Assembly (NCBI GenBank): GCA_964229355.1 | Contig: CAXRDE010000005.1 | Span: 37,131-101,130, forward strand | Length of the DNA stretch: 64,000 nt | DNA from: Candidatus Sericytochromatia bacterium | Lineage (GTDB): Bacteria > Cyanobacteriota > Sericytochromatia > UBA7694 | Direction: 5' to 3' | Shown here: positions 1,487 through 48,592 of the stretch, in pieces | Numbering within the stretch: the stretch's first letter is position 1 | Layout: every line of letters starts with the position of its first letter | Translations under genes and position numbers: made by a program | Notes under the pieces: generated by a model | What the model was told of the DNA's origin: nothing | Databases searched by the model: none | What the model saw: only the letters and a program-made list of their open reading frames with translations

Positions 1487-2689
1487 TTGGCTCGAAAACC
1501 AAAAAACCGCAGCCCCTTTGGACAATTGCTGTGGCAACAACGCAAACAACATAAAATGACCATGCGCACCCTGGCCAATACCGTCGGGGTTTCAGAGTCA
1601 TATATTTCGCTTTTAGAGTCCGGCGATCGCCAGCAGCCCGCACGCGAGCTGGTGCTTAAACTGGCCCACGCCTTAGGAGCACGCAGCTCAAATCAGCTGG
1701 CGGACCAATTTTTACTGGCCGCGGGTTATTACCCTGCCGATAAACAAATGTACGAGCACCACGGTGATACCGTGCAGAGCTTTTTAGATACCTTACACAA
1801 AGACCCCACCAATTTTCAGGCTTATAGCGCCCTGATTTTTGCCTACATTAAACTGGGCAAAAGCGACGAGGCCCGTCACATGATTCAAGAGGGCTTAGGA
1901 CGTTTTGAAAACAGCAATCAACTGCAATCTTTATTGGCGAGCTTAGAGCTGGCCAAACAGAATTTTGACAAAGCCATTGAGCTACAACAGTTCGCTCTGA
2001 AGCAGCAACAGCAAGAACAACCTCACGAAGCCTTAAGCAGTGAAGAAAGCCGCCGATTTCAGCTCAACCTGGGTATTATGCACTTTTTAAGAGGCTTGCA
2101 TTATCAGGAGCTTTGGTTACAATCTGCCGAGCCTGGGCGTGCTGTTGCTGCCCAGGCAGACTATGCCACCGCCAAGGCCTTATTAAAAGCGCTGCTTGAT
2201 ACCCAGGCTGATGCCTACATCTTAGACGAATACGCACGCATTTGCTTCAACCAGGGCTTTGTGGGGGGTAAAACGCCTGGAGATAGCCAGCGTTACTGGA
2301 AAGAGTGCAGCGAAAGTTTTGAAGCCGTCTTACGCACCCCTGACAAATTTACCCTGGGACGACAAATTCTGATGGAAGCCTGCGTGTTTCTGGCCATGGC
2401 TTACACCCATCAGGGACGCTTTGAAACCGCTGAGGTACTGATTCATAGCTTAGAAGTCTCCATTAATCCGCCCACAGCCCTTCTTTACTACCTCAAGGCC
2501 TGCTACCACAGTTTAAAGGGCCAGGCTACCCAACAAAGCAGCGAAGCCCCGCTAGCCCTTGAGGCCTTAGAAACCGTACACCGTATCGATCCCCATTTCA
2601 CGCCCCAGGCTTTAACAGATCCTGATTTAGCCTGGTTGCGCCTAAACCACCTGTCACGTCTGGAGCGTTTGATTCATGAAAAACCTTAA
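1487..2689 (+). CDS. HTH (XRE-family) transcriptional regulator with C-terminal TPR-like region
   Basis: N-terminal FGQLLWQQRKQHKMTMRTLANTVGVSESYISLLESGDRQ is a Cro/C1-type HTH, followed by a long helical-repeat region. TTG start at 1487 is supported by alignment to the paralog at 40112..41302 (MPRRKAKGEGKTPFSLRLQALRK...). Confidence 0.7.
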   Translation: MARKPKNRSPFGQLLWQQRKQHKMTMRTLANTVGVSESYISLLESGDRQQPARELVLKLAHALGARSSNQLADQFLLAAGYYPADKQMYEHHGDTVQSFLDTLHKDPTNFQAYSALIFAYIKLGKSDEARHMIQEGLGRFENSNQLQSLLASLELAKQNFDKAIELQQFALKQQQQEQPHEALSSEESRRFQLNLGIMHFLRGLHYQELWLQSAEPGRAVAAQADYATAKALLKALLDTQADAYILDEYARICFNQGFVGGKTPGDSQRYWKECSESFEAVLRTPDKFTLGRQILMEACVFLAMAYTHQGRFETAEVLIHSLEVSINPPTALLYYLKACYHSLKGQATQQSSEAPLALEALETVHRIDPHFTPQALTDPDLAWLRLNHLSRLERLIHEKP

Positions 2690-8561: not shown

Positions 8562-8608
8562 GTCCATTAAACTTTGCAACCTGGCCTGTGTAGGTCTGTA
8601 AGCGCGCC

Positions 8609-8803
8609 TTAAATCTTTTTGACCGCTTTTTTCACCTGTCCTAGCGCCTCACCGGCCTGACGCTTCAGCTTTCCGCCCATGGCTTCAGCCTTGCCTTTCG
8701 CTTTTTCAGATTCGTCTCGGGTCATTTCACCCACCGCCTGGCGGACTTTGCCCTTAACCTGTGATTTTAGGCCTTCAGCCTGGAGTTTGTGTTCGGTTGC
8801 CAT
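8609..8803 (-). CDS. CsbD-family stress response protein
   Basis: Small Lys/Gly-rich protein (KGKVRQAVGEMTRDESEKAKGKAEAMGGKLKRQAGEALG) typical of CsbD. Confidence 0.65.
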   Translation of the reverse strand: MATEHKLQAEGLKSQVKGKVRQAVGEMTRDESEKAKGKAEAMGGKLKRQAGEALGQVKKAVKKI

Positions 8804-8894
8804 TAAAAGCACCTCTTTCTGTTTGTGTTGTTTTTAGCCTAACAGGGAACAAACAACTCAAGGAAGAGGGCTTAACGCAGCTTAAATAGCACTT

Positions 8895-23404: not shown

Positions 23405-24346
23405 ATGACACCACTGGTTAGCATTAAAGTTTTCGGCGTTGGCGGCAGCGGCGGAAACACGATTAATCATATGCGCGCTGCCGCCTTTGAAGGGGTTGAG
23501 TTTATTGCGGTCAATACCGATGCTCAGGCCCTCTCCATGGTGGACGCTCAAGAACGCCTGCAAATTGGCGGCAAAGGCACCCGCGGCTTAGGCGCGGGCG
23601 GAAACCCCGAAGTGGGCATGAAAGCCTTTGAAGAAAGCCGTGAAGAAATCAGTCATTATTTACAAGACACCGACATGGTGTTTGTCACCTGCGGCATGGG
23701 CGGCGGTACCGGTACCGGCGCAGGCCCAGCCCTGGCCGAAATGGCCAAATCCATGGGCGCTTTGACCGTGGGCGTGGTGACCCGTCCCTTTATGTTCGAA
23801 GGCAAACGTCGCAAAGAACAAGCCGATGCAGGCATTCAGCGCATGCTCAACGCCGTGGATACCCTGATTGTGGTCTCCAACGACCGCTTGCTGCAAAGCA
23901 TGAAAGGCGGCCTGGCCGTTAAGAATGCCTTCCAGGAAGTGGACAACGTATTGTTGCAAGCCATTCAGGGCATTTCAGACATCATTAACATCCCCGGTTT
24001 GATTAACGTGGACTTCGCCGACGTGCGCGCCATTATGAGCGACGCAGGCGTGGGCGTAATGGGCGTGGGCGTCAGTTCCATGGATGTGGAAAACCCAGCC
24101 GTCGAAGCCGTTAAAAAAGCCATCGAAAACCCCTTGCTGGAGTACTCCATCGATGGTGCCACCGGCGTGGTCTTCAACATCACCAGCGGTCAGGACGTTT
24201 CTCTGCACGAAATCAACGAAGCAGCGGAAGTCATTTACAACACCGTCAACCCCGATGCCAACGTTATTTTTGGTACCGTCCTTGACGAAAACATGCGCGA
24301 TCAGGTCAAAGTGACCGTCATTGCCATTGTGGGCCGTCATTTATAA
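23405..24346 (+). CDS. ftsZ: FtsZ (tubulin-like GTPase) lacking the C-terminal linker/tail
   Basis: GGGTGTG signature, T7 loop NDRLL, high collinearity with FtsZ core. Ends right after the core (..[11 protein letters not shown]). RBS aaggaa upstream. Confidence 0.85.
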
Positions 24347-38345: not shown

Positions 38346-40115
38346 TTAAGGTGATTCAGGGTTCATTCGCAGCCAGATTTCAATATACTTTTGGTACTCA
38401 CTCGCCAGCGCACTGCTATGACTTTGCAACAGGCTTTGCATCTCTTCGCGGGCAGCCTGGGGCGTTATTTTACCCAGAATCAGCTGCGTTAAAAGGGTCA
38501 CCATACGGGCGTCTTTAATGCTCGACAGCTCCTGGTTCAACAGTTCAGAAACAGGCACTGACAAGACCTCTTCGCGGCCTTCACCCGAGACCGGATCTGT
38601 ATAAGCAATGGTTAACTTAACGGAACCACTGACATTGCCTTCGCCGCTCGCCTGAAAGCGCTCCAGAAAATACTGGGAGCTATTGGCCGCAAAGTGAATA
38701 GGCTCTACTTCACTGGCCACCTGAGAAGACTGTTCTGCCGCCGACACCGTACGTTGCAGGGCCGCCGGGTAATCCAGGCGGAACCGCACATCCCGGGCCG
38801 CAATTTGGGTTAAGGCAATAAAGCGCTCACCAAAGGCTCGCTCTGCATCCGCCACACTAATCACTGAGGTATAGCTGCCCTTACCCGCTTCGGTCAAGGT
38901 ATTCAAAAAGCCTTCGTTAAAATCAAAGCCGAATCCCAAACCCGAAAAGTAGATGCCTTCGGCATTGTTAATCCGGGTATTTTGCGCGATAATATCCGCG
39001 TTCACTTGCCCCTGATTGGCATAGGCATCGGTTAACATCATCACCCGATTGGTTTTGTTCGCATCATAATAGGTTCTGGCCAGCGCATAAGCCGATTGTA
39101 AACCCGCGTTAAGATTGGTGCCGGACTCGGTGCGCAGGGCATCCACAGCCGCCAGCCAGGCGGTCGTATCACCCTCATATTTCCAGGCTTCCACGCGGGT
39201 GGTGGCATTGTCAGAAAAGGTAATCAAATTGACCACATCACCAGCTTTAAGCTGTGCAGGCAAGGCCCGCAGCCCCGCTTTGGCCACCGCCAATAAATTC
39301 GGGGTTTGTCCAGATTCATTCAATTGTACAGACGCGCTATCCATAGAGCCTGAAACGTCCAGCAACAGGGTAAGCACCAGATTCTGGCGCTGTGCTTTGC
39401 TGATCTCAGGGGTTTTCACTTGAACCCCTAAATCATAAGCGGTTTGTGAACCGGCTTGCGCATCACCCGCAGCGGTATTGCTCACCGTATGCTGCCAAAG
39501 GCCCATCGCCACCTGAAAGGTACCCAGGTCTTTGAGATTTTGAACGGTAAAGGTTTCGTAATTCAAAAACTCCCAGGGCCGTACCCAGCTGGGATTCGGG
39601 TTCACCGGATTGGCCCGGCCCAGGGCAAACTTGGTCTGCTCTACACCGGCGGTACTGGCGGAGTCATCATAAGAAAAATAAAAGAAGTTCTGCGCATCAG
39701 GTATGGGGTCTACGGGCTGCTCTTCAACGGGTTCTTCGGAGCTTGTGTCGCTGGTATTGGAACCGGGCGCAGCAGTGCCCTGAGGCGTGGGCAGCATGGC
39801 GTTACTACCCCCGCTATCACCAGAGTAACTATCGCTCTCAGCCATGGCGGGTGGTGCCACCATGGGCACTTGCTCATTTATGGCACTGGTATCTTTGGCT
39901 GCACCTCGGCGTAAATCCGTAGTAGGCAGACCTGGAATCGGATCATAGATAGTAATGCCATCTAGCTCTTTGGGCCCCTTAGGGAAGGGGGTAATGTTTC
40001 CATTGTGATCCACCGAAGGATTGGAGGGATGGGTGGGGGTGTCGAGCCCTGAGCAAGACGTATAAAAGCTCAAAGAGAGCAAAAGAGCAGTGGTCATCAG
40101 GGGGCGCTTTTTCAT
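38346..40115 (-). CDS. vWA-domain lipoprotein
   Basis: Signal and lipobox (SFYTSCSG); MIDAS LLLDVSGSMDS; VMMLTDAYANQG strand. ATGA overlap with the upstream XRE-TPR gene. Confidence 0.7.
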   Translation of the reverse strand: MKKRPLMTTALLLSLSFYTSCSGLDTPTHPSNPSVDHNGNITPFPKGPKELDGITIYDPIPGLPTTDLRRGAAKDTSAINEQVPMVAPPAMAESDSYSGDSGGSNAMLPTPQGTAAPGSNTSDTSSEEPVEEQPVDPIPDAQNFFYFSYDDSASTAGVEQTKFALGRANPVNPNPSWVRPWEFLNYETFTVQNLKDLGTFQVAMGLWQHTVSNTAAGDAQAGSQTAYDLGVQVKTPEISKAQRQNLVLTLLLDVSGSMDSASVQLNESGQTPNLLAVAKAGLRALPAQLKAGDVVNLITFSDNATTRVEAWKYEGDTTAWLAAVDALRTESGTNLNAGLQSAYALARTYYDANKTNRVMMLTDAYANQGQVNADIIAQNTRINNAEGIYFSGLGFGFDFNEGFLNTLTEAGKGSYTSVISVADAERAFGERFIALTQIAARDVRFRLDYPAALQRTVSAAEQSSQVASEVEPIHFAANSSQYFLERFQASGEGNVSGSVKLTIAYTDPVSGEGREEVLSVPVSELLNQELSSIKDARMVTLLTQLILGKITPQAAREEMQSLLQSHSSALASEYQKYIEIWLRMNPESP

Positions 40116-41302
40116 GATTTTTTCTCCTTCAGTAATGCACGAAAATCCTGGGGGCGGGCCTGACGCAAAGGAGCCAGGTCGGGATCGTGAGCGGCTTCAG
40201 CGGCAACGGTATCAAAGGCCTGGTGAAGCGCCTGGCTTAAAGCCTGCAAAGCCCGATCTAACCAGGTGTTTTCTTGCGAGGTGCGGTACAGTGCGGTGTA
40301 TAGACAGGCATGAAGATAGTTGACGAGCCAATAGTCGGCCTGAAAAGCGCTCAGCAAGCCCAGCGTCAGTTCAGCAGACGCGAAGTCCTGCTTTTGGGTA
40401 TAGGCATGGGCTAAAAAGGCCGCTGATTCTCGCAAAGCATTTACCCCCAGCTCATTTTTTTGCGGGTGTATAATCACACGACGGTAAGCGTCGATGGTTT
40501 GTTCCCAGTCTGCGGCAAGCTGGGTTAAGTAAGCGCGGTTAAAAAGCAGACGGGCATATTCATCGAGAATATACACATCACCGGCGGGGCTTTTATCTTT
40601 AGAGAGGGCTTGTTCCATTAAAGTGGAAGCCTGCGTATATTGTTCTAGCGCCAGATCTTGCTCGCCTTCTCGCATATGTTGGTGGCCCATTAAAAAACGA
40701 ATGGCCCCCAAATTAAACATTAAATCCACTTCACTCAGATAGGGCACAGGCTTTTGTTGCACATGCTTTAAGGCACTTTCTTGACTGATCAGTGCCGCTT
40801 CATAATTGCCCTTGCTGAGTTCCAAATGGGCCAGTAAACACTGCATATATGCGGTTTCTTGAAAACGCTGCAGTCCCTCTTGAATATGCTTATACGCTTC
40901 TTCTTGACGTTCGGCGCGAATCAAAGCCAAAATCCAACGGGAAAAAAGCCGAAAATCCTGGGGATTTTCAGCCAAAGCCTGCATATACACCTGTAAGGTG
41001 TCGCGGTAAGCGTTAACCGCGCGAGGGTTGACGGGCATAAAGCCCGCCAGAATCAAAAGTTCGTCACGCAATTTGTCTCGGGTGGCCGCCTCAGCATCTG
41101 CAGAAGTTAAGGCGGCAGCCAGATTTAACACCACTTCCCGAGAGGGCTGACGCCCTCCCGATTCCAGCAGAGAAATAAAAGACTTCGAAACGCCCACCGC
41201 CTGGGCCAGTTGGTCCATGTTCAGGCGATGGTCTTTTCGTAAAGCCTGTAGGCGAAGCGAAAAGGGAGTTTTCCCTTCACCCTTGGCTTTTCTTCGAGGC
41301 AC
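40112..41302 (-). CDS. HTH (XRE-family) regulator with TPR repeats (paralog of 1487..2689)
   Basis: FSLRLQALRKDHRLNMDQLAQAVGVSKSFISLLESGGRQPS HTH, then TPR-like repeats. GTG start overlaps the upstream lipoprotein stop (TAGTG). Confidence 0.7.
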   Translation of the reverse strand: MPRRKAKGEGKTPFSLRLQALRKDHRLNMDQLAQAVGVSKSFISLLESGGRQPSREVVLNLAAALTSADAEAATRDKLRDELLILAGFMPVNPRAVNAYRDTLQVYMQALAENPQDFRLFSRWILALIRAERQEEAYKHIQEGLQRFQETAYMQCLLAHLELSKGNYEAALISQESALKHVQQKPVPYLSEVDLMFNLGAIRFLMGHQHMREGEQDLALEQYTQASTLMEQALSKDKSPAGDVYILDEYARLLFNRAYLTQLAADWEQTIDAYRRVIIHPQKNELGVNALRESAAFLAHAYTQKQDFASAELTLGLLSAFQADYWLVNYLHACLYTALYRTSQENTWLDRALQALSQALHQAFDTVAAEAAHDPDLAPLRQARPQDFRALLKEKKS

Positions 41303-42419: not shown

Positions 42420-43553
42420 TTATGCGTTATCTTGATCTGCTTCAGCAGCAGGTTCATCGGCAGCGATGGGATCCACAGCCACGTCCACAGGATATGCCAC
42501 ACCACCGTACATCATGCGATACATCACAGGACGGTTCATGGACTTAATCTGACCCGTAATAGCATCCAGCTCTAAGGAGCCGTACAAATACTGTTCAGTG
42601 GGGTACACAATATCAGGGCGAGGCTCACTGGGTTTTGTGGCGTTTGCATCGTCCACAGGTTCAGGCTCACCGGGTTTGGGCTCAGGAGCATCTACCTTGA
42701 CCTTAAAGTTAAAGTTCACAAAGTAGCGCAGGCTATCTTGAGATTGCTGGTTCAGGTTTAGACTCCACTGGGCATCCGCAGGCAGGTCATAAACAATCGT
42801 AGCTTCAGCGTTATCGGATTCAGGATAAACGGGAATTCCACTGGGATTGCTTTTGCTGAGGAAAGCAGCCCGGGCAATGCGTACCGCTTCATCAGAGTCA
42901 ATTTTAACGCGAGAGATTTCAATATTTTGCTCTCCCCACACCATGCGGTGTACACGAATTTCTTTATCGAGCACATACACATTCAGGGTTTCTTTCTTCG
43001 CATTTGAAGCCAGACGATACACAAAGCGAGGTTTTACACGCAAAGGCTCATCCTGACCGGGCAATTGAATGTACTCTTCGTGCTCAGCATTCATCTGGGC
43101 GCGAGATTCTAGCAAGCGGGCGTCCGCATCCCATTCCGCAAGCATCGGTTTTACATTCTGATTGTACACAGCCACCAGGGTACTGGCAGAGGCCGCAGGA
43201 TAAATATTTTCTTCGGCGTACTGAATGCTGTAGCTGTTAAAGTCATGGCCACCATAGTAATAACCTGGAGCAATGGACATGCGGTCCATCGCGGGTTCAG
43301 CCATGGCCATTTGTACTGAGAAACCAGTCTCAGGGGTTAAAACCTCAGCCAGGGGTACCACCTGGCCGTCAACGCGTCCCAATTTCAAAGGACGCTTCAC
43401 CAGCGCAGAGGCCAACACGGGACGTTGTGCCGTCACAACAGGGGTTTGAACACCTGAATTGTTAGCAGGTGCAGGGGTAATAGCAGGGGTGGCACAGGCA
43501 TTGAGTAATGCGCCGGCCGTTAAAGCAAAAAGCACGTGGCGATAAGATAGCAT
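42420..43553 (-). CDS. lipoprotein (paralog B)
   Basis: Lipobox LLNACATP; the KKETLNVYVLDKEIRVHRMVWG block is collinear with paralog A. Confidence 0.6.
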   Translation of the reverse strand: MLSYRHVLFALTAGALLNACATPAITPAPANNSGVQTPVVTAQRPVLASALVKRPLKLGRVDGQVVPLAEVLTPETGFSVQMAMAEPAMDRMSIAPGYYYGGHDFNSYSIQYAEENIYPAASASTLVAVYNQNVKPMLAEWDADARLLESRAQMNAEHEEYIQLPGQDEPLRVKPRFVYRLASNAKKETLNVYVLDKEIRVHRMVWGEQNIEISRVKIDSDEAVRIARAAFLSKSNPSGIPVYPESDNAEATIVYDLPADAQWSLNLNQQSQDSLRYFVNFNFKVKVDAPEPKPGEPEPVDDANATKPSEPRPDIVYPTEQYLYGSLELDAITGQIKSMNRPVMYRMMYGGVAYPVDVAVDPIAADEPAAEADQDNA

Positions 43554-43659
43554 GATTCGTTCTCCTTAGAAGACTAATTGATTGTGTTCTGGTCTTAGTA
43601 TAGCGCTTTGTTTACATAAAGTCAACAAAGAAAACTTAAAGTAAACACCAAAATCGCCG

Positions 43660-43688
43660 AAAAAAAAAGACTGTCGAAAAACAGTCTT
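43660..43688 (-). terminator. rho-independent terminator
   Basis: Stem aagactg/cagtctt with an 8-nt loop; a run of 9 A on the plus strand gives a U-tract on the minus-strand transcript downstream of gene 43724..44179. Confidence 0.6.
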
Positions 43689-43690
43689 GC

Positions 43691-43718
43691 AAGGTTAAAT
43701 CAAAGGTTAAATCAAAGA
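43691..43718. repeat. tandem AGGTTAAATCAA motif (2 copies)
   Basis: aaggttaaatcaaaggttaaatcaaag. The same core recurs inverted at 44180-44215, at 47204-47263 and at 17672-17690. Confidence 0.6.
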
Positions 43719-43723
43719 TTGTA

Positions 43724-44179
43724 CTAAAAGGTGGCGGGGATTTGCATGTTGTGCTGACGGGCACGCATGGCCTGGGCATGATGGACATCATCAATAACCC
43801 GCTGAACATTGAAAAAGCTCATGACGTACCACACCATAAAGAAGGGCACAGAGAGCAGTGCAACCCAAACCACATTGAGGTCGCTCAAACCATGGGTCAT
43901 CATGGCAAACATTAAGGTGGCCGCTAAGGCAATATAAAAACGGGCATCAAAGGCCAGGAGACGCTCTAAAAAGAGAACAAAAGCAGAAGGCTGGTAAACC
44001 GCTACAGGGCGCAGGGGCGCAGTGCGGTTTTGAAAATAAACCTGATCGCCTTGCTCGTAAGGCATGTACATGGGGTTACCTGATTGACGATCTTTGCTGC
44101 TATCACCGGATTTAAAGGCAGCGTCTTGAAAGTGAAATGTACCGAGATTTTGTGTGTTTTGAGCAGTGCTTAAGCGCAT
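43724..44179 (-). CDS. small membrane protein, hypothetical
   Basis: 151 aa with two C-terminal hydrophobic helices. Flanked on both sides by AGGTTAAAT motif pairs. Confidence 0.45.
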   Translation of the reverse strand: MRLSTAQNTQNLGTFHFQDAAFKSGDSSKDRQSGNPMYMPYEQGDQVYFQNRTAPLRPVAVYQPSAFVLFLERLLAFDARFYIALAATLMFAMMTHGLSDLNVVWVALLSVPFFMVWYVMSFFNVQRVIDDVHHAQAMRARQHNMQIPATF

Positions 44180-44340
44180 TGATTTAACCTATATAATCTT
44201 TATTTAACCTTGTTATTTTTATCTTAATATTTTTAATCAAAAATTGCAAGCGTTTTTTTGACACTTTATCAAAAAAAGTGCAAAAACCTGTGTTTATGCT
44301 GTTAAAATACCCACCATGACACCATTAAGTTTGTTAAACA

Positions 44341-44748
44341 ATGATTAAAGCAAAATTTATGCTTCTGGTTTTATTGGGCCTTGGCAGCTGTCAAACCCCG
44401 AATACGCCCCTCGCTCTCCCGACACCATCGAGCGAAACAGCCCAGGCATGGCAAGATGGCGAAAGCGCGTACCTCCAACACCTCGAACAGGAGCCCAACA
44501 CACCGCGGACCCTTACCGCCATTCAGGGCCAATGGATCGACGTGAATGGCATCGGCCAGTGGACCTTTTATAGTGAACCCGCGACACAAGCCGAGACGGA
44601 TGCTCCCGATGTGTTTCAGCTGTTTGCCCAATTGCGTCACCAATGGCATCATCCTCACTCACCCGTTACAGCCCAACAAACGGTGTATTGGACTCCCCAC
44701 ACAGGTTGGCAATCCGGTATTCTGAGCACAGAAGGAACACAACCATGA
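44341..44748 (+). CDS. lipoprotein, hypothetical
   Basis: Signal and lipobox LLGLGSCQ. ATGA overlap with menA. Confidence 0.5.
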   Translation: MIKAKFMLLVLLGLGSCQTPNTPLALPTPSSETAQAWQDGESAYLQHLEQEPNTPRTLTAIQGQWIDVNGIGQWTFYSEPATQAETDAPDVFQLFAQLRHQWHHPHSPVTAQQTVYWTPHTGWQSGILSTEGTQP

Positions 44749-45635
44749 TCAATACACACTCCTTAAAACTCTGGCTTCTCGCTGCCCGTCCCAAAACCCT
44801 GGGCGCAGCAGTGGCTCCTGTTATTGTGGGCACCGCCCTGGCTTTTGAACACAGTGGCATCGCCTGGTGGGCCATGTTGTCTTGCCTGGTGGGCTCACTG
44901 CTATTACAGCTGGGCACCAATTTCGCCAACGACTATTTTGACTTTGTCCAGGGGGCTGACACCGAAAGCCGTCTGGGCCCCACCCGCGTCACCCAGGCGG
45001 GCCTTATTGCACCAGAAACCGTACGCAACGCGTTCATTCTGATGTTTGCCCTGGTGGCCATTCCAGGCCTTTATCTGAGTTATGTGGGGGGCTGGCCCGT
45101 CTTTGTGTTGGGATGTTTGTCGGTATTGAGCGGGATCTTATACACCGCTGGGCCTTTTGCCCTGGCTTACCTGGGCTTAGGCGATATCTTTGTGTTGATC
45201 TTTTTTGGGATTGTAGCCACCGTGGGCACCTATTATGTGCAAACCCTGCATTTAAACAGCGCTATTTTTCTGGCGGCTCTGGGACCCGGCTTGTTTTCCA
45301 CCGCCATCTTGGCCGTCAATAACCTGCGGGATCGTCTCACCGACACCGAAAGCAATAAGCGCACGCTGGCCGTGCGCTTTGGCGCGAACTTCGCCCGTAT
45401 TGAATACTTTTTATGCTGCTGGATCGCCTGCCTGATGCCCTGGGTTATTTACTACTTCACCCCAGAAAAGCATCCCTACTCTCTGGCCGCCAGCCTGACG
45501 TTTATTTGGTGTATTCCCACCCTGCTCAGGGTCTTCCGCCTGGATGCAGATCCCGCTTTAAACCCCATTTTAGGGCAAACCGGTAAGTTTTTACTGGTGT
45601 ATAGCGCGGTCTTTGCCATAGGTTGGGTGCTCTAA
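44745..45635 (+). CDS. menA: 1,4-dihydroxy-2-naphthoate polyprenyltransferase (UbiA superfamily, MenA type)
   Basis: NDYFDFVQGAD aspartate-rich motif and about 8 TM helices; N-terminus WLLAARPKTLGAAVAPV is typical of MenA. Confidence 0.75.
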   Translation: MINTHSLKLWLLAARPKTLGAAVAPVIVGTALAFEHSGIAWWAMLSCLVGSLLLQLGTNFANDYFDFVQGADTESRLGPTRVTQAGLIAPETVRNAFILMFALVAIPGLYLSYVGGWPVFVLGCLSVLSGILYTAGPFALAYLGLGDIFVLIFFGIVATVGTYYVQTLHLNSAIFLAALGPGLFSTAILAVNNLRDRLTDTESNKRTLAVRFGANFARIEYFLCCWIACLMPWVIYYFTPEKHPYSLAASLTFIWCIPTLLRVFRLDADPALNPILGQTGKFLLVYSAVFAIGWVL

Positions 45636-45644
45636 ACAGAACAC

Positions 45645-47162
45645 CTAAGCCACGACCTTGATGGTATTCAAACGCACATCATCAGGGCCATTAATAAAGC
45701 CACCGTGGCGATACACCAATTGCAAATAGTCCACCAGTTCCTGGGTGATCCGCTCACCGGGCACTAAAATGGGGATACCGGGTGGATAAGGCGAAACCAC
45801 TTCGGTACAGATGCGACCTGCAGACTTCGAAAAGGGTACCGTTTCAACCTTTGCATAAAAAGCCTCACGGGGTGTCAACACTGCTTCAGGCAGCTCAGGT
45901 AAATCCATTTGTTGCAATAAAGGCAGCGCCTGACGGGGAATACCCTGGGTATGAATGTCCTGTGAAATACTGCGTACCGCTTCCACCAAACGCACCATAT
46001 CTTGTTGGGTGTTGGCAAAGGTAACAATTTCTAAGACATTGGTTAAGGTACCCATCTCGGATTGAATCCCGTGACGCTCGTTGAGCCAATCGCAAAAATC
46101 AAAACCGGAGACTCCCAGTGCTGAAACATTAATGGTTAACTTGCTTTCATCGAGGGCAAACAGGCCAGGAAAACCCACCCGCTCTGTACCAAAACAGTGA
46201 ATCCCGGGAATTTTATTGAGTTCGGTACGGGCCCAACGGGAGATTTCAAGGGCATGCTGCAAGAGTGTTTCACCGTGCAGCGCCATTTGACGGCGAGCGG
46301 TGTCTAAAGAAGCCATGAGCACGTAGTTGGGGCTGGTGCTTTGCATCAGTTGCAGCACCTTGCGGGCGCGGTTGACATCTACCCGTCCCGAATTAATGTG
46401 AAGCATAGAGCTCTGGGTCATGCCCGCGATAATTTTATGAGTGGACTGCACCACCATATCTGCCCCGACATCCACCGCAGACAAAGGGTACTCGGGGTGA
46501 AAGTGCAAATGGGGGCCATGGGCTTCGTCCACCAGAAGGGGTTTGCCGTGACGGTGACAAATTTCAGCGATACGCCGCAAATCCGAACTCACCCCATAAT
46601 AGGTGGGGTTCACCACAAACAAACCCTTTACATCAGGGTGACGCTGCAACGCAGCCTCCACGGCTTCAGGAGTCAGGTTATGGTCAATGCCCAGTTCCCG
46701 GTCCCAGGTGGGGGTGATATACACAGGAATTGCACCACTCAGCAACACCCCACTGATAATCGACTTGTGCACGTTGCGAGGAATCAGAATTTTATCCCCC
46801 GGATCGCACACGGTCAGCACCATCGTATTGTTACCACAGGTCGAGCCATTCACCAAAAAGAAGCTGTGCTCTGCCCCGTAGGCCTGGGCCGCCAATTCCA
46901 TGGCTTCTTTCAGCACGTGCTCAGGGTCATGCAGGTTATCCACCTCGGGCAACTCGCACAGATCGATTTCAAAGGTCTTACGGCCCACAAAGTCTAAAAA
47001 CTCAGGATCAATCCCCGCCCCATATTTGTGACCGGGGGTATGAAAACCCACCATATCTTTTTCGGTATAGGCTTTCAAGGCATCAAAGAATGGGGCGCGT
47101 GTTTGCGGGTTAAAGCCATTTGCGTGGGTTTGCGACACGGCATGAGATAGGGAGTTGAACAT
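45645..47162 (-). CDS. PLP-dependent Orn/Lys/Arg decarboxylase (fold type I, OKR_DC_1 family)
   Basis: GFHTPGHKYG N-terminal motif, and the STHKIIAGMTQSSMLH PLP-lysine region; 505 aa. Confidence 0.8.
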   Translation of the reverse strand: MFNSLSHAVSQTHANGFNPQTRAPFFDALKAYTEKDMVGFHTPGHKYGAGIDPEFLDFVGRKTFEIDLCELPEVDNLHDPEHVLKEAMELAAQAYGAEHSFFLVNGSTCGNNTMVLTVCDPGDKILIPRNVHKSIISGVLLSGAIPVYITPTWDRELGIDHNLTPEAVEAALQRHPDVKGLFVVNPTYYGVSSDLRRIAEICHRHGKPLLVDEAHGPHLHFHPEYPLSAVDVGADMVVQSTHKIIAGMTQSSMLHINSGRVDVNRARKVLQLMQSTSPNYVLMASLDTARRQMALHGETLLQHALEISRWARTELNKIPGIHCFGTERVGFPGLFALDESKLTINVSALGVSGFDFCDWLNERHGIQSEMGTLTNVLEIVTFANTQQDMVRLVEAVRSISQDIHTQGIPRQALPLLQQMDLPELPEAVLTPREAFYAKVETVPFSKSAGRICTEVVSPYPPGIPILVPGERITQELVDYLQLVYRHGGFINGPDDVRLNTIKVVA

Positions 47163-47203
47163 GGGGGGATCTTTCTTGTGTTGGAGGTGGTCAAAGGTTA
47201 ATT

Positions 47204-47263
47204 TCAGGTTAATAACTTTCTCTTAACCTTACTGTGTAATGTATCACATTTGAGGTTAAGATC
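47204..47263. promoter_or_regulatory. cluster of four AGGTTAA motifs (one inverted) upstream of the gene at 47378
   Basis: aaaggttaatttc, aggttaataac, tcttaacctta, gaggttaagat within 60 bp. Confidence 0.5.
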
Positions 47264-47377
47264 TGGCTAAAACCGGTGCGTTTCGCCTGAAAAAAAAGCT
47301 GGTATTTTACACAGGTTTTTGGGTATAGTGAGTAGTATACGAACAACCCTGTCGTTTTCAATTTGGAGAATTAAACC

Positions 47378-48592
47378 ATGGCCTCAATTTCTTCGGGTAC
47401 AAGCCCTTTAAGTCCGCTATCCGCTCAAACCTTGCGCCCGACAGAAAGTGCTACGCAATCCACAGCTCCTCCATCCGCTATCGCTGAAACACCCCCCCAG
47501 GCCGAAACACAAGATCAAGTGGCCGTACAAGCCAATCTCGAAGGGGCAGACTTTCACCCCACTGCAGGCGGCACGTTTCCTGATGCCGCTGCCGCAGCAG
47601 CGCCCGAAATCGAACTGCCCTCCCTGGATGATCCCGTTACGGGTGTTTTGCGGGGTGAGGCCCTGGAGGGCCGACTCAAAGCCCTGCAGCAAGAAATAGG
47701 CACCCAACTCAGCGCCGCCCAGGAACGTCATGCCACAGCCATTAGTAATGTCGAAACCAGCGGCATCCGTGATGACTTGCTCAATGAAGTCCTGAAACAT
47801 CAACACGCCATCGACACGCTCACCCAAATGCAAACCCTGTTGGAGCGAGGCGATCACGATGCGGTCAAACAATTGCAAGCCCTCATTAAAAGCTCGGCGA
47901 TTGATGAAGCCACAGGTAAAAATATCGACGTAGATAATCACTATGGTCCCGGTACCGATCGCCTCGCTGTGGAGCGCATCCGTCAACCGGACAGCACTTA
48001 CGTTGACAAAAATTTTAACTATGAACCCAAAGAGGCTTTTGTCTATCAATACGGCGAGATCGGCGAGGACGGCGGCACCAGCATGGAAGCTCAGGCCAAT
48101 TGTGGCCCTGCGTCCATGGCTATGGTCATTGAACGCCTGGGTGGCGACGCGCCCACCATGAAAGAAATTCGCCAGGAAGCCGGGGCACCCACGGGCAATC
48201 GCAAGGGCACTTACGGACTGGACTCAGACCAGGTGGAAAAAGGGCTGACAGAGATTTTGGGGAATCAGGGTATTCAAATTGAGACAGAGACACAGGTGTT
48301 TCGCAGCCGAGACAATGAAGGGGTTACCGAAGCCATGCGCGAGGCCCTGGCCGCAGGTAAAGAAGTCATTTTGCTGACGGCCAACCTCGAAAGCGGAGGT
48401 CAGGGACACTATATCGTCGTCAACGAAGTGCGTGAAGACGGGAGTATTGTCGTCGATGACCCACAGAACGAAGATGGACAGGGTCAGGTACATACCGCCG
48501 CAGAATTAGAGGCCGGTATGAAGCGGCGAGGCGGTTACGGCCGCGATACACGGGTGATTACTGTAAACCGGGCTACAGCCCCGGCTGCCTAG
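47378..48592 (+). CDS. protein with C-terminal C39-like (papain-fold) cysteine peptidase domain and a disordered N-terminus
   Basis: EAQANCGPASMAMVIERLGG (Cys) ... GQGHYIVVNEV (His) fit the Peptidase_C39_2 pattern. The N-terminal 120 aa are Ser/Thr/Pro/Ala/Gln-rich, with no signal peptide. Confidence 0.55.
   Translation: MASISSGTSPLSPLSAQTLRPTESATQSTAPPSAIAETPPQAETQDQVAVQANLEGADFHPTAGGTFPDAAAAAAPEIELPSLDDPVTGVLRGEALEGRLKALQQEIGTQLSAAQERHATAISNVETSGIRDDLLNEVLKHQHAIDTLTQMQTLLERGDHDAVKQLQALIKSSAIDEATGKNIDVDNHYGPGTDRLAVERIRQPDSTYVDKNFNYEPKEAFVYQYGEIGEDGGTSMEAQANCGPASMAMVIERLGGDAPTMKEIRQEAGAPTGNRKGTYGLDSDQVEKGLTEILGNQGIQIETETQVFRSRDNEGVTEAMREALAAGKEVILLTANLESGGQGHYIVVNEVREDGSIVVDDPQNEDGQGQVHTAAELEAGMKRRGGYGRDTRVITVNRATAPAA

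Follow-up and report, generated by a model that had tools for sequence, protein, structure and literature searches.

A phased AGGTTAA repeat array around a predicted membrane-protein gene of Sericytochromatia: a conserved element resembling Pho-box-type operators

The heptamer AGGTTAA (TTAACCT on the opposite strand) is, as judged from its distribution and its conservation among relatives, a real and deeply conserved cis-regulatory element in Sericytochromatia. In the window, the whole stretch of 64,000 nucleotides that was analysed, its intergenic copies cluster on both sides of a small gene, here called gene X, and in one further spacer. The heptamer may be the recognition unit of a sequence-specific DNA-binding protein, with the copies upstream of gene X forming a repressor operator array and the 3' copies serving for looping, a reading to which we give about an even chance.

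Sericytochromatia are non-photosynthetic relatives of the cyanobacteria, known almost only from metagenomes, and we know of no report on gene regulation in this group. The motif provides a deeply conserved cis-element, together with a small defined target set (gene X and, in one sub-clade, also arginine decarboxylase/HlyIII) and a testable connection to the code by which PhoB/SphR recognizes DNA in photosynthetic cyanobacteria. If the unit were truly identical with the Pho box, the specificity of PhoB would be older than the class split and the protein here would be a repressor. If the copies act by pairing in the mRNA, gene X would offer a clean, phylogenetically broad bacterial case of pairing between the 5' and 3' ends of a message.

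Distribution of the repeat and layout of the gene X module

Exact AGGTTAA copies lie at 43692 and 43704 (+ strand) and at 44184 and 44204 (- strand) beside gene X, and at 47195, 47206 and 47253 (+) and 47223 (-) in the spacer next to an arginine decarboxylase gene. The total is marginal, with 11 copies in the window against 6.4 expected and 5 of 100 shuffles reaching 11, yet the distribution is a strong signal, because all eight intergenic copies are confined to three spacers. True intergenic DNA, defined from the ORF and Pfam annotation of the window, amounts to 3.6 kb (43% GC); a Markov-1 model built on that DNA predicts 0.8 copies, and the observed eight were reached in 0 of 5000 simulations. 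The remaining three copies are single and coding, and the copy at 8754, apparently intergenic, falls within a small ORF reading as CsbD-like. Intergenic density in the window exceeds coding density about 75-fold. A weight matrix made from the eight units scores each at 14.8 bits or more, while the next best site in the window, a coding one, reaches 11.65 bits. The repeat search returned a perfect tandem with a 12-bp period at 43691-43714, inverted repeats 12-14 nt long on either side of gene X (43724..44179) and inverted pairs at 47194-47261, and no further cluster of units was found in about 270 kb of related loci.

The preliminary description of this DNA had placed the motif in four intergenic regions. 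Three spacers are confirmed, whereas the fourth, at 17672-17690, does not belong: its two words (GGGTTAAAT and GGGTTACAAT) lack the core and rank 520th and 1040th with the unit matrix. The further proposal, that the motif is a selected non-coding element and not AT-rich noise, is borne out by the 75-fold density ratio, by positions kept in 12 lineages and by conservation far above the synonymous rate. The features of the gene X module are as follows, with slots counted from the first base of the -10 hexamer.

43660..43688 (- strand): intrinsic terminator of gene X, a 9-bp stem (43688-43667) followed by T9
43691..43702 (+ strand): 3' unit B, AAGGTTAAATCA, directly adjoining the terminator stem
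43703..43714 (+ strand): 3' unit A, AAGGTTAAATCA, which is TGATTTAACCTT in the mRNA; degenerate in L001, L008 and L012
43715..43726 (+ strand): third 3' unit, degenerate AAGATTGTACTA, which overlaps the stop codon and extends the 12-bp period of the two perfect units
43724..44179 (- strand): gene X, encoding a 151-aa protein with a predicted membrane hairpin
44180..44190 (- strand): 5' unit 3, AGGTTAAATCA, adjoining the ATG
44191..44199 (- strand): 5' unit 2, degenerate AAGATTATA, at slot +27; AAGGTTAT in other lineages
44200..44212 (- strand): 5' unit 1, CAAGGTTAAATAA, 8 nt past the -10 hexamer, at the inferred 5' end of the transcript
44221..44226 (- strand): -10-like hexamer TAAGAT, inside the unit-like element ATATTAAGAT, slot -4
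44233..44239 (- strand): unit-like TGATTAA in the -35/-10 spacer, slot -13, upstream of the inferred start and so untranscribed
44244..44249 (- strand): -35-like hexamer TTGCAA of the gene X promoter; TTGCAA, TTGCAT or TTGCTT across 12 of 12 lineages

Homologues of gene X comprise 34 proteins with 30-98% identity from assemblies labelled Candidatus Sericytochromatia. The module was compared at the loci of 12 gene X lineages (33-98% protein identity; individual lineages carry L numbers) from marine, soil and bioreactor assemblies. Every one of the 12 has the same order of parts: a TTGCAA-like hexamer, N17, a TAAGAT-like hexamer, N8, the first unit, further units, the gene, one to three inverted units, and a hairpin with a T-run. 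By this comparison, the layout is kept across the class Sericytochromatia. A common gene cluster is found in ten lineages, comprising UbiA and a 170-aa gene on the opposite strand, gene X, two proteins of about 380 aa without assigned function, an XRE-HTH-TPR protein and a VWA protein. In L014 and L022, gene X lies in another neighbourhood (an SLH protein, DUF58) with a convergent gene downstream, and the module is retained despite the different neighbours, so it belongs to gene X and not to them. Across five lineages, pairwise identity is 90.5% over the 100 nt that precede the ATG, compared with 47.6% at fourfold-degenerate sites of gene X and 87.6% at its second codon positions.

These comparisons also bear on two trivial readings, that the units flank, as inverted repeats, a gene cassette that inverts or moves, or that they are a chance AT-rich similarity, both of which are highly improbable. 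Inverted repeats of 12-14 nt do bracket a 460-bp gene whose context differs in L014 and L022, as a cassette would have it; but the gene has a single orientation in all of at least 20 contigs, no recombinase is nearby, the promoter and terminator stand outside the repeats yet move with the gene, and the third cluster encloses nothing. The simulations, the gap in matrix scores and conservation measured against fourfold sites exclude chance.

The gene X protein has no Pfam or NCBIfam match. Its N-terminal 65 residues are conserved and predicted to be disordered, and a two-helix membrane hairpin follows in the structure model (mean pLDDT 71). On this model of a disordered N-terminus and a helical membrane hairpin, the protein itself was rejected as the regulator. 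Neighbouring genes were also considered as targets of the units. The divergent UbiA operon was rejected, its likely extended -10 (TGTTAAAAT, 44300-44308) being about 100 nt away and L014 and L022 keeping the units without the operon. The downstream operon was ruled out as the target of the 3' units, since the unit stays in place next to an inserted gene in L008 and next to the convergent gene in L014 and L022.

Promoter, phased units and the two ends of the gene X transcript

The arrangement TTGCAA-N17-TAAGAT, with a spacing of exactly 17 nt in 12 of 12 lineages, is what we infer to be the sigma-70-like promoter of gene X, and together with an A-tract it is apparently a strong one. Unit-like words reach into this promoter. 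Slot -13 holds AGATTAA in L001, L008, L012 and L015 and perfect AGGTTAA in L017 and L018, while slot -4 is perfect AGGTTAA in L016, so that both slots upstream of the predicted start carry good copies in some relatives. Downstream, CAAGGTTAAAT begins 8 nt after the -10 hexamer, and CAAGGTTAA of 5' unit 1 is retained, with its distance to that hexamer unchanged, in 9 of 12 lineages. The degenerate unit AAGATTAT follows between 5' units 1 and 3, and the AGG of unit 3 can, by its position, act as a putative Shine-Dalgarno sequence. The unit as a mere ribosome-binding site is nevertheless ruled out, since the L013 units stand 35-60 nt before the ATG. It does not serve as a -10 element either, because TTAAAT/TAAATC lacks the key A2 and T6 bases and a distinct -10 is conserved. 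For the same reasons, namely a separate conserved -35/-10 pair and the missing -10 bases, the earlier alternative of a lineage-specific promoter element is not supported.

In the 5' array, unit-like slots occur at -13, -4, +16, +27 and +36/37 in every lineage, with extra unit copies near the ribosome-binding site in some. A 10-bp period fits them best (R = 0.79; 0.09 for a period of 11.5 bp), and the array comprises 3-6 slots 9-11 bp apart, just two units per array being perfect. In-phase units that continue into DNA that is not transcribed argue for a protein that reads the duplex along a single helical face while spanning the core promoter, which is how a repressor would be placed. Fixed slots about 10 bp apart, extending into untranscribed promoter DNA, likewise make a binding site for one regulator, as initially suggested, the best reading of the motif.

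The preliminary description had called the two upstream copies an inverted pair. They are direct repeats, 20 bp apart with the degenerate unit between them, and are inverted only with respect to the downstream pair; in the sense direction of gene X, the 5' copies are AGGTTAA and the 3' copies TTAACCT. Nor is each copy promoter-proximal, as had been stated, the pair at 43691-43714 sitting between the stop codon of gene X and its intrinsic terminator (43688-43667). The 3' units, one to three in number, are inverted and lie inside the predicted transcript in all lineages. A unit adjoins the terminator hairpin in 12 of 12 lineages, an equivalent of the hairpin with its T-run being present in every one, and in L018 it still does so although the 3' UTR is 75 nt longer. 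The (C)TTTGATTTAACCTTG of 3' unit B is nearly invariant. The period of the 3' pair is 12-15 bp, not 10-11 bp.

In the operator reading, the array extends from the -35/-10 spacer to the start codon of gene X, and an oligomer bound there would obstruct RNA polymerase, which is the ground for interpreting the array as a repressor operator. The one to three inverted 3' units would constitute a distal operator, and the same protein would bridge them to the 5' array, enclosing gene X in a loop of about 500 bp. Counted against this reading are the 12-15 bp period at the 3' end, the distant decarboxylase orthologues without an array, a position and strand unlike those of Pho activation, and regulated genes that are not known members of the Pho regulon. 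A model of DNA binding alone is further strained by a 3' unit that always adjoins the terminator and is always inverted, and by matched 5' and 3' flanks in L014 and L022.

These last observations are addressed by a tentative alternative, in which the 5' end of the gene X mRNA (ACAAGGUUAA...) pairs with UUAACCUUG before the terminator hairpin, either alone or on top of an operator function in DNA. Such a clamp would hide the 5' end of the message, together with the ribosome-binding site in some lineages, and would thereby control stability or translation. In 12 of 12 lineages both partners are oriented so as to be complementary and fall inside the inferred transcript, as far as predicted ends can tell. 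When the whole predicted transcript is folded, the minimum-energy structure has 12-32 long-range pairs, ending 0-1 nt from the terminator stem, in 11 of 11 folded lineages, although every inverted repeat folds in this way by construction. Every lineage has a longest Watson-Crick helix of 9-12 bp, with duplex energies of -14 to -30 kcal/mol, and gene X alone among 61 genes of the window shows more than 8 nt of complementarity between its 5' and 3' flanks (12 nt). Matching between the flanks of one 5' unit and those of one 3' unit is seen in L022 and L014, the two lineages that diverge most. L022 has matched flanks (AGGTTAAACAG) with 11 nt pairing within the lineage against at most 8 across lineages, and L014 has matched flanks (GTTAAGGGT and TTAGGTTA) with the best energy on the diagonal; this lineage-specific matching is what selection for RNA pairing predicts. 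The A-to-G change of unit 1 in L013, L015 and L016 remains compatible through G-U pairing, but the G-to-A change in L012 is uncompensated, and in the main clade the 3' unit is invariant while positions 10-12 of unit 1 vary, which is not classical covariation. Pairing accounts neither for the in-phase units in promoter DNA that is not transcribed nor for a requirement of 3-6 phased copies, and it does not explain the decarboxylase/HlyIII array, which is of mixed orientation and has no 3' partner. Against Rfam, the window yielded no hit reaching the gathering score, and 43500-47500 had no match even at E values up to 5. For the 3' copies, pairing of the transcript ends could conceivably be the true role or a second layer, at odds well short of even. 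Dual use, as an operator array in DNA and a panhandle-closing pairing in mRNA conserved since the Sericytochromatia radiation, is less likely still.

The arginine decarboxylase spacer and the candidate regulator

The second locus is the divergent spacer between arginine decarboxylase (45645..47162) and HlyIII/TrhA, where the array at 47194-47270 holds 4-5 units.

47194..47213 (+ strand): AAGGTTAAT-ttc-AGGTTAAT, two units in tandem with a period of 11 bp, lying 33 nt from the start codon of arginine decarboxylase
47222..47229 (- strand): inverted unit, CTTAACCT on the + strand
47233..47248 (no strand assigned): CRP-like palindrome TGTGTAATGTATCACA, between inverted units, read from the sequence
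47253..47270 (+ strand): unit AGGTTAAG and, 11 bp on, degenerate TGGCTAA

The 85-nt block at the decarboxylase gene is 88.6% identical and present in L001, L005 and L012, all of which lack the C39-like gene; the latter had been proposed as the target of this array but is an insertion peculiar to this genome, the relatives without it keeping the block. The palindrome is conserved in the same three lineages, and we infer that it may act as a CRP-like site. In the operator reading, this second array of 4-5 units would surround the CRP-like site in the promoter region of arginine decarboxylase/HlyIII in one sub-clade. The block is absent from L008, and distant decarboxylase orthologues in L020 and L021 have no array. 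L019 retains a remnant inverted pair upstream of its decarboxylase gene with the same N10 spacing. Conservation of the regulon at decarboxylase orthologues was rejected on the absence in L020 and L021, with only a remnant in L019.

The kind of regulator is suggested by the unit itself. The cyanobacterial Pho box consists of 8-bp CTTAACCT units with 3-bp linkers in three tandem repeats (PMC1906773), and its TTAA core is essential for PhoB binding (PMC11126600). Read on the other strand, the window units are CTTAACCT (twice), TTTAACCT (four times) and ATTAACCT (twice), with TTAA invariant. A matrix built only from the published boxes of Su et al. Table 1, with the consensus CTTAACCT, scores all eight window units at 9.5-11.1 bits or better, and its four best tandem matches in the window are the three AGGTTAA clusters. 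The unit, its invariant TTAA core and its head-to-tail repetition of about 11 bp thus equal the SphR/PhoB Pho box, on which ground an OmpR-type regulator is preferred. A PhoB-like or other OmpR-type repressor is favored further by the family's habit of repressing from sites that overlap the start, as with the cyanobacterial OmpR-type regulator RpaB at HLR1 (bioRxiv 10.1101/443713). By analogy, then, the regulator is tentatively taken as PhoB-like or as another winged-helix response regulator of OmpR type. Pfam and NCBIfam scans of the window detect neither a pst or pho gene nor any response regulator that carries a DNA-binding domain, and the receiver protein of the L001 and L008 clusters was rejected as a candidate because it has no output or DNA-binding domain.

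The resemblance could be taken further, as true Pho boxes in Pho-regulon promoters activated by PhoB/SphR under phosphate starvation, which we regard as distinctly unlikely. The consensus, the TTAA core and the 11-bp tandem pairs are as in the published pstS, phoA and sphX promoters, and the organism lies within the Cyanobacteriota/Melainabacteria group. Yet the units do not stand in for the -35, extending instead from the spacer to +45 in reverse relative to gene X, just two perfect tandem units occur per array, and the neighbours (an unknown membrane protein, arginine decarboxylase and HlyIII/TrhA) have no part in phosphate acquisition. Pieces of about 20 kb from related genomes contain neither pst nor phoB. 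As far as the sequence tells, Pho-box membership fails on position, strand and gene content.

Other regulators had been put forward at the outset, namely an AraC protein and XRE-TPR proteins. Nothing connects the AraC to the motif. The XRE-HTH-TPR protein (40112..41302) remains a candidate, since 10 of 12 lineages keep its gene at the same place, four genes downstream of gene X; on this reading, which is unlikely, the units would be its operators, with an oligomer bound to 7-bp units in several orientations in the manner of SinR. SinR provides a precedent as an XRE-type tetramer that recognizes a 7-bp unit in several orientations, as inverted, tandem and single copies, and forms loops (PMC3163267), and the decarboxylase array contains an inverted pair, AGGTTAA-N10-TTAACCT, of which L019 keeps the remnant. 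However, the prevailing arrangement is of direct repeats spaced by about 10 bp, an uncommon pattern for dimers of XRE proteins, and gene X of L014 and L022 retains its units away from the XRE cluster. The promoter of the XRE-containing operon has, around its -35, a dyad palindrome of its own, TGTTTACA...TGTAAACA, which is a more natural operator and fits such a protein better, and a 34%-identical paralogue in the window blurs the specificity.

Comparison with known regulatory systems

The message-end pairing known from icaR, hbs and hok fbi/tac mRNAs (PMC3868564, PMC5737220, PMC9841398) is resembled in the 9-14 nt of complementarity between leader and 3' UTR, in the single small gene involved and in the covering of the ribosome-binding site in some lineages. 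Unlike in those mRNAs, the word is present as well at a second promoter and in promoter DNA that is not transcribed, the very 5' end is what would join the base of the terminator, and the pairing is a predicted one here. SinR is approached through short multi-copy units in mixed orientations, a proposed looping oligomer and an XRE-type candidate gene nearby; it differs in its GTTCTYT unit and its preference for inverted pairs, whereas direct repeats prevail at gene X. The likeness to RpaB/HLR1 lies in octamer direct repeats, a response regulator and repression from a site centred near the transcription start, but HLR1 is (G/T)TTACA(T/A)(T/A) with a 2-nt linker in a single pair, compared with 5-6 slots and a distal inverted array here.

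The closest likeness is to the Pho box, with an identical 8-mer, the TTAA core, the pattern PyTTAAPyPy(T/A), a head-to-tail period of 11 bp (9-12) and an origin in the same phylum-level group. Pho boxes replace the -35, stand about 10 bp upstream of the -10 and follow the direction of transcription, whereas gene X has a separate -35/-10 pair with units from -13 to +45, carries TTAACCT on the template strand, opposite to the Pho-box orientation, and has inverted copies at its 3' end. Pho boxes flank phosphate-acquisition genes (pst, sphX, phoA, nucH), and the units here flank genes for the unknown membrane protein, arginine decarboxylase, HlyIII/TrhA and a C39-like peptidase. The repeat is accordingly a familiar kind of regulatory site and no new class of element, most like a Pho-box-type operator array, and what is unusual about it is an inverted copy at the base of the terminator, which gives gene X its 5'/3' bracketing.

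Promoter elements and regulators around gene X

The inverted repeat at the promoter of 42420..43553, a gene in the cluster downstream of gene X (43724..44179, minus strand, a 151-aa small membrane protein), is a second operator-like element, distinct from the AGGTTAA units.

43609-43647, inverted repeat TGTTTACA ... (A)GTAAACA, bracketing the -35 of the 42420..43553 promoter
43625-43620, TTGACT, that -35
44258-44272, palindrome TTGACACTTTATCAA (TTGA-N7-TCAA)
44300-44308, conserved extended -10 TGTTAAAAT, belonging to the divergent 44341.. gene
1487-2689, plus strand, XRE-HTH-TPR protein
40112-41302, minus strand, XRE-HTH-TPR protein of the gene X cluster

Sequence comparison of relatives finds the TGTTTACA ... 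(A)GTAAACA repeat conserved in L001, L005, L012, L013 and L015-L018, and it is possibly a site of the cluster's own XRE-TPR protein. The two XRE-HTH-TPR proteins are paralogous over their full length, sharing 34% identity, with almost the same recognition-helix regions. Upstream of gene X, the centre of the TTGACACTTTATCAA palindrome lies ~50 nt from each inferred divergent start site, and with TGTTAAAAT it forms what looks like a pair of back-to-back promoters with one upstream site in common.

Residues 1-35 of gene X show no variation among five lineages, while synonymous sites vary freely. This invariant region is predicted to be disordered, and the N-terminus is a conserved peptide on a predicted two-helix membrane anchor.

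The decarboxylase/HlyIII spacer

47233-47248, CRP-like palindrome TGTGTAATGTATCACA, with inverted AGGTTAA units on its flanks
47378-48592, plus strand, C39-like peptidase gene
54774-56072, second C39-like gene of the window

The TGTGTAATGTATCACA palindrome, in the spacer between the arginine decarboxylase and HlyIII genes, is kept in L001, L005 and L012, and the scanned proteins of the window yielded no cNMP-binding regulator. The first C39-like gene is missing from this spacer in L001, L005, L008 and L012, and is therefore a lineage-specific insertion between the two genes.

Other proteins of the window

~8600-8806, minus strand, small ORF resembling the CsbD family of stress proteins
8895-10046, minus strand, ARPP-2 protein
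16806-17570, minus strand, TANGO2 protein
23405-24346, plus strand, short (313 aa) FtsZ/tubulin-family protein
30758-33244, minus strand, 828-aa protein matching the Pfam domains MVP_shoulder and Vault_3

The small ORF, falling below the 80-aa cut-off of the ORF list, reads like a CsbD-family stress protein and holds one isolated AGGTTAA copy. The short FtsZ/tubulin-family protein, the ARPP-2 protein and the TANGO2 protein represent families that are uncommon or little studied in bacteria. By its MVP_shoulder and Vault_3 domains, the 828-aa protein is a bacterial protein homologous to the major vault protein of eukaryotes.
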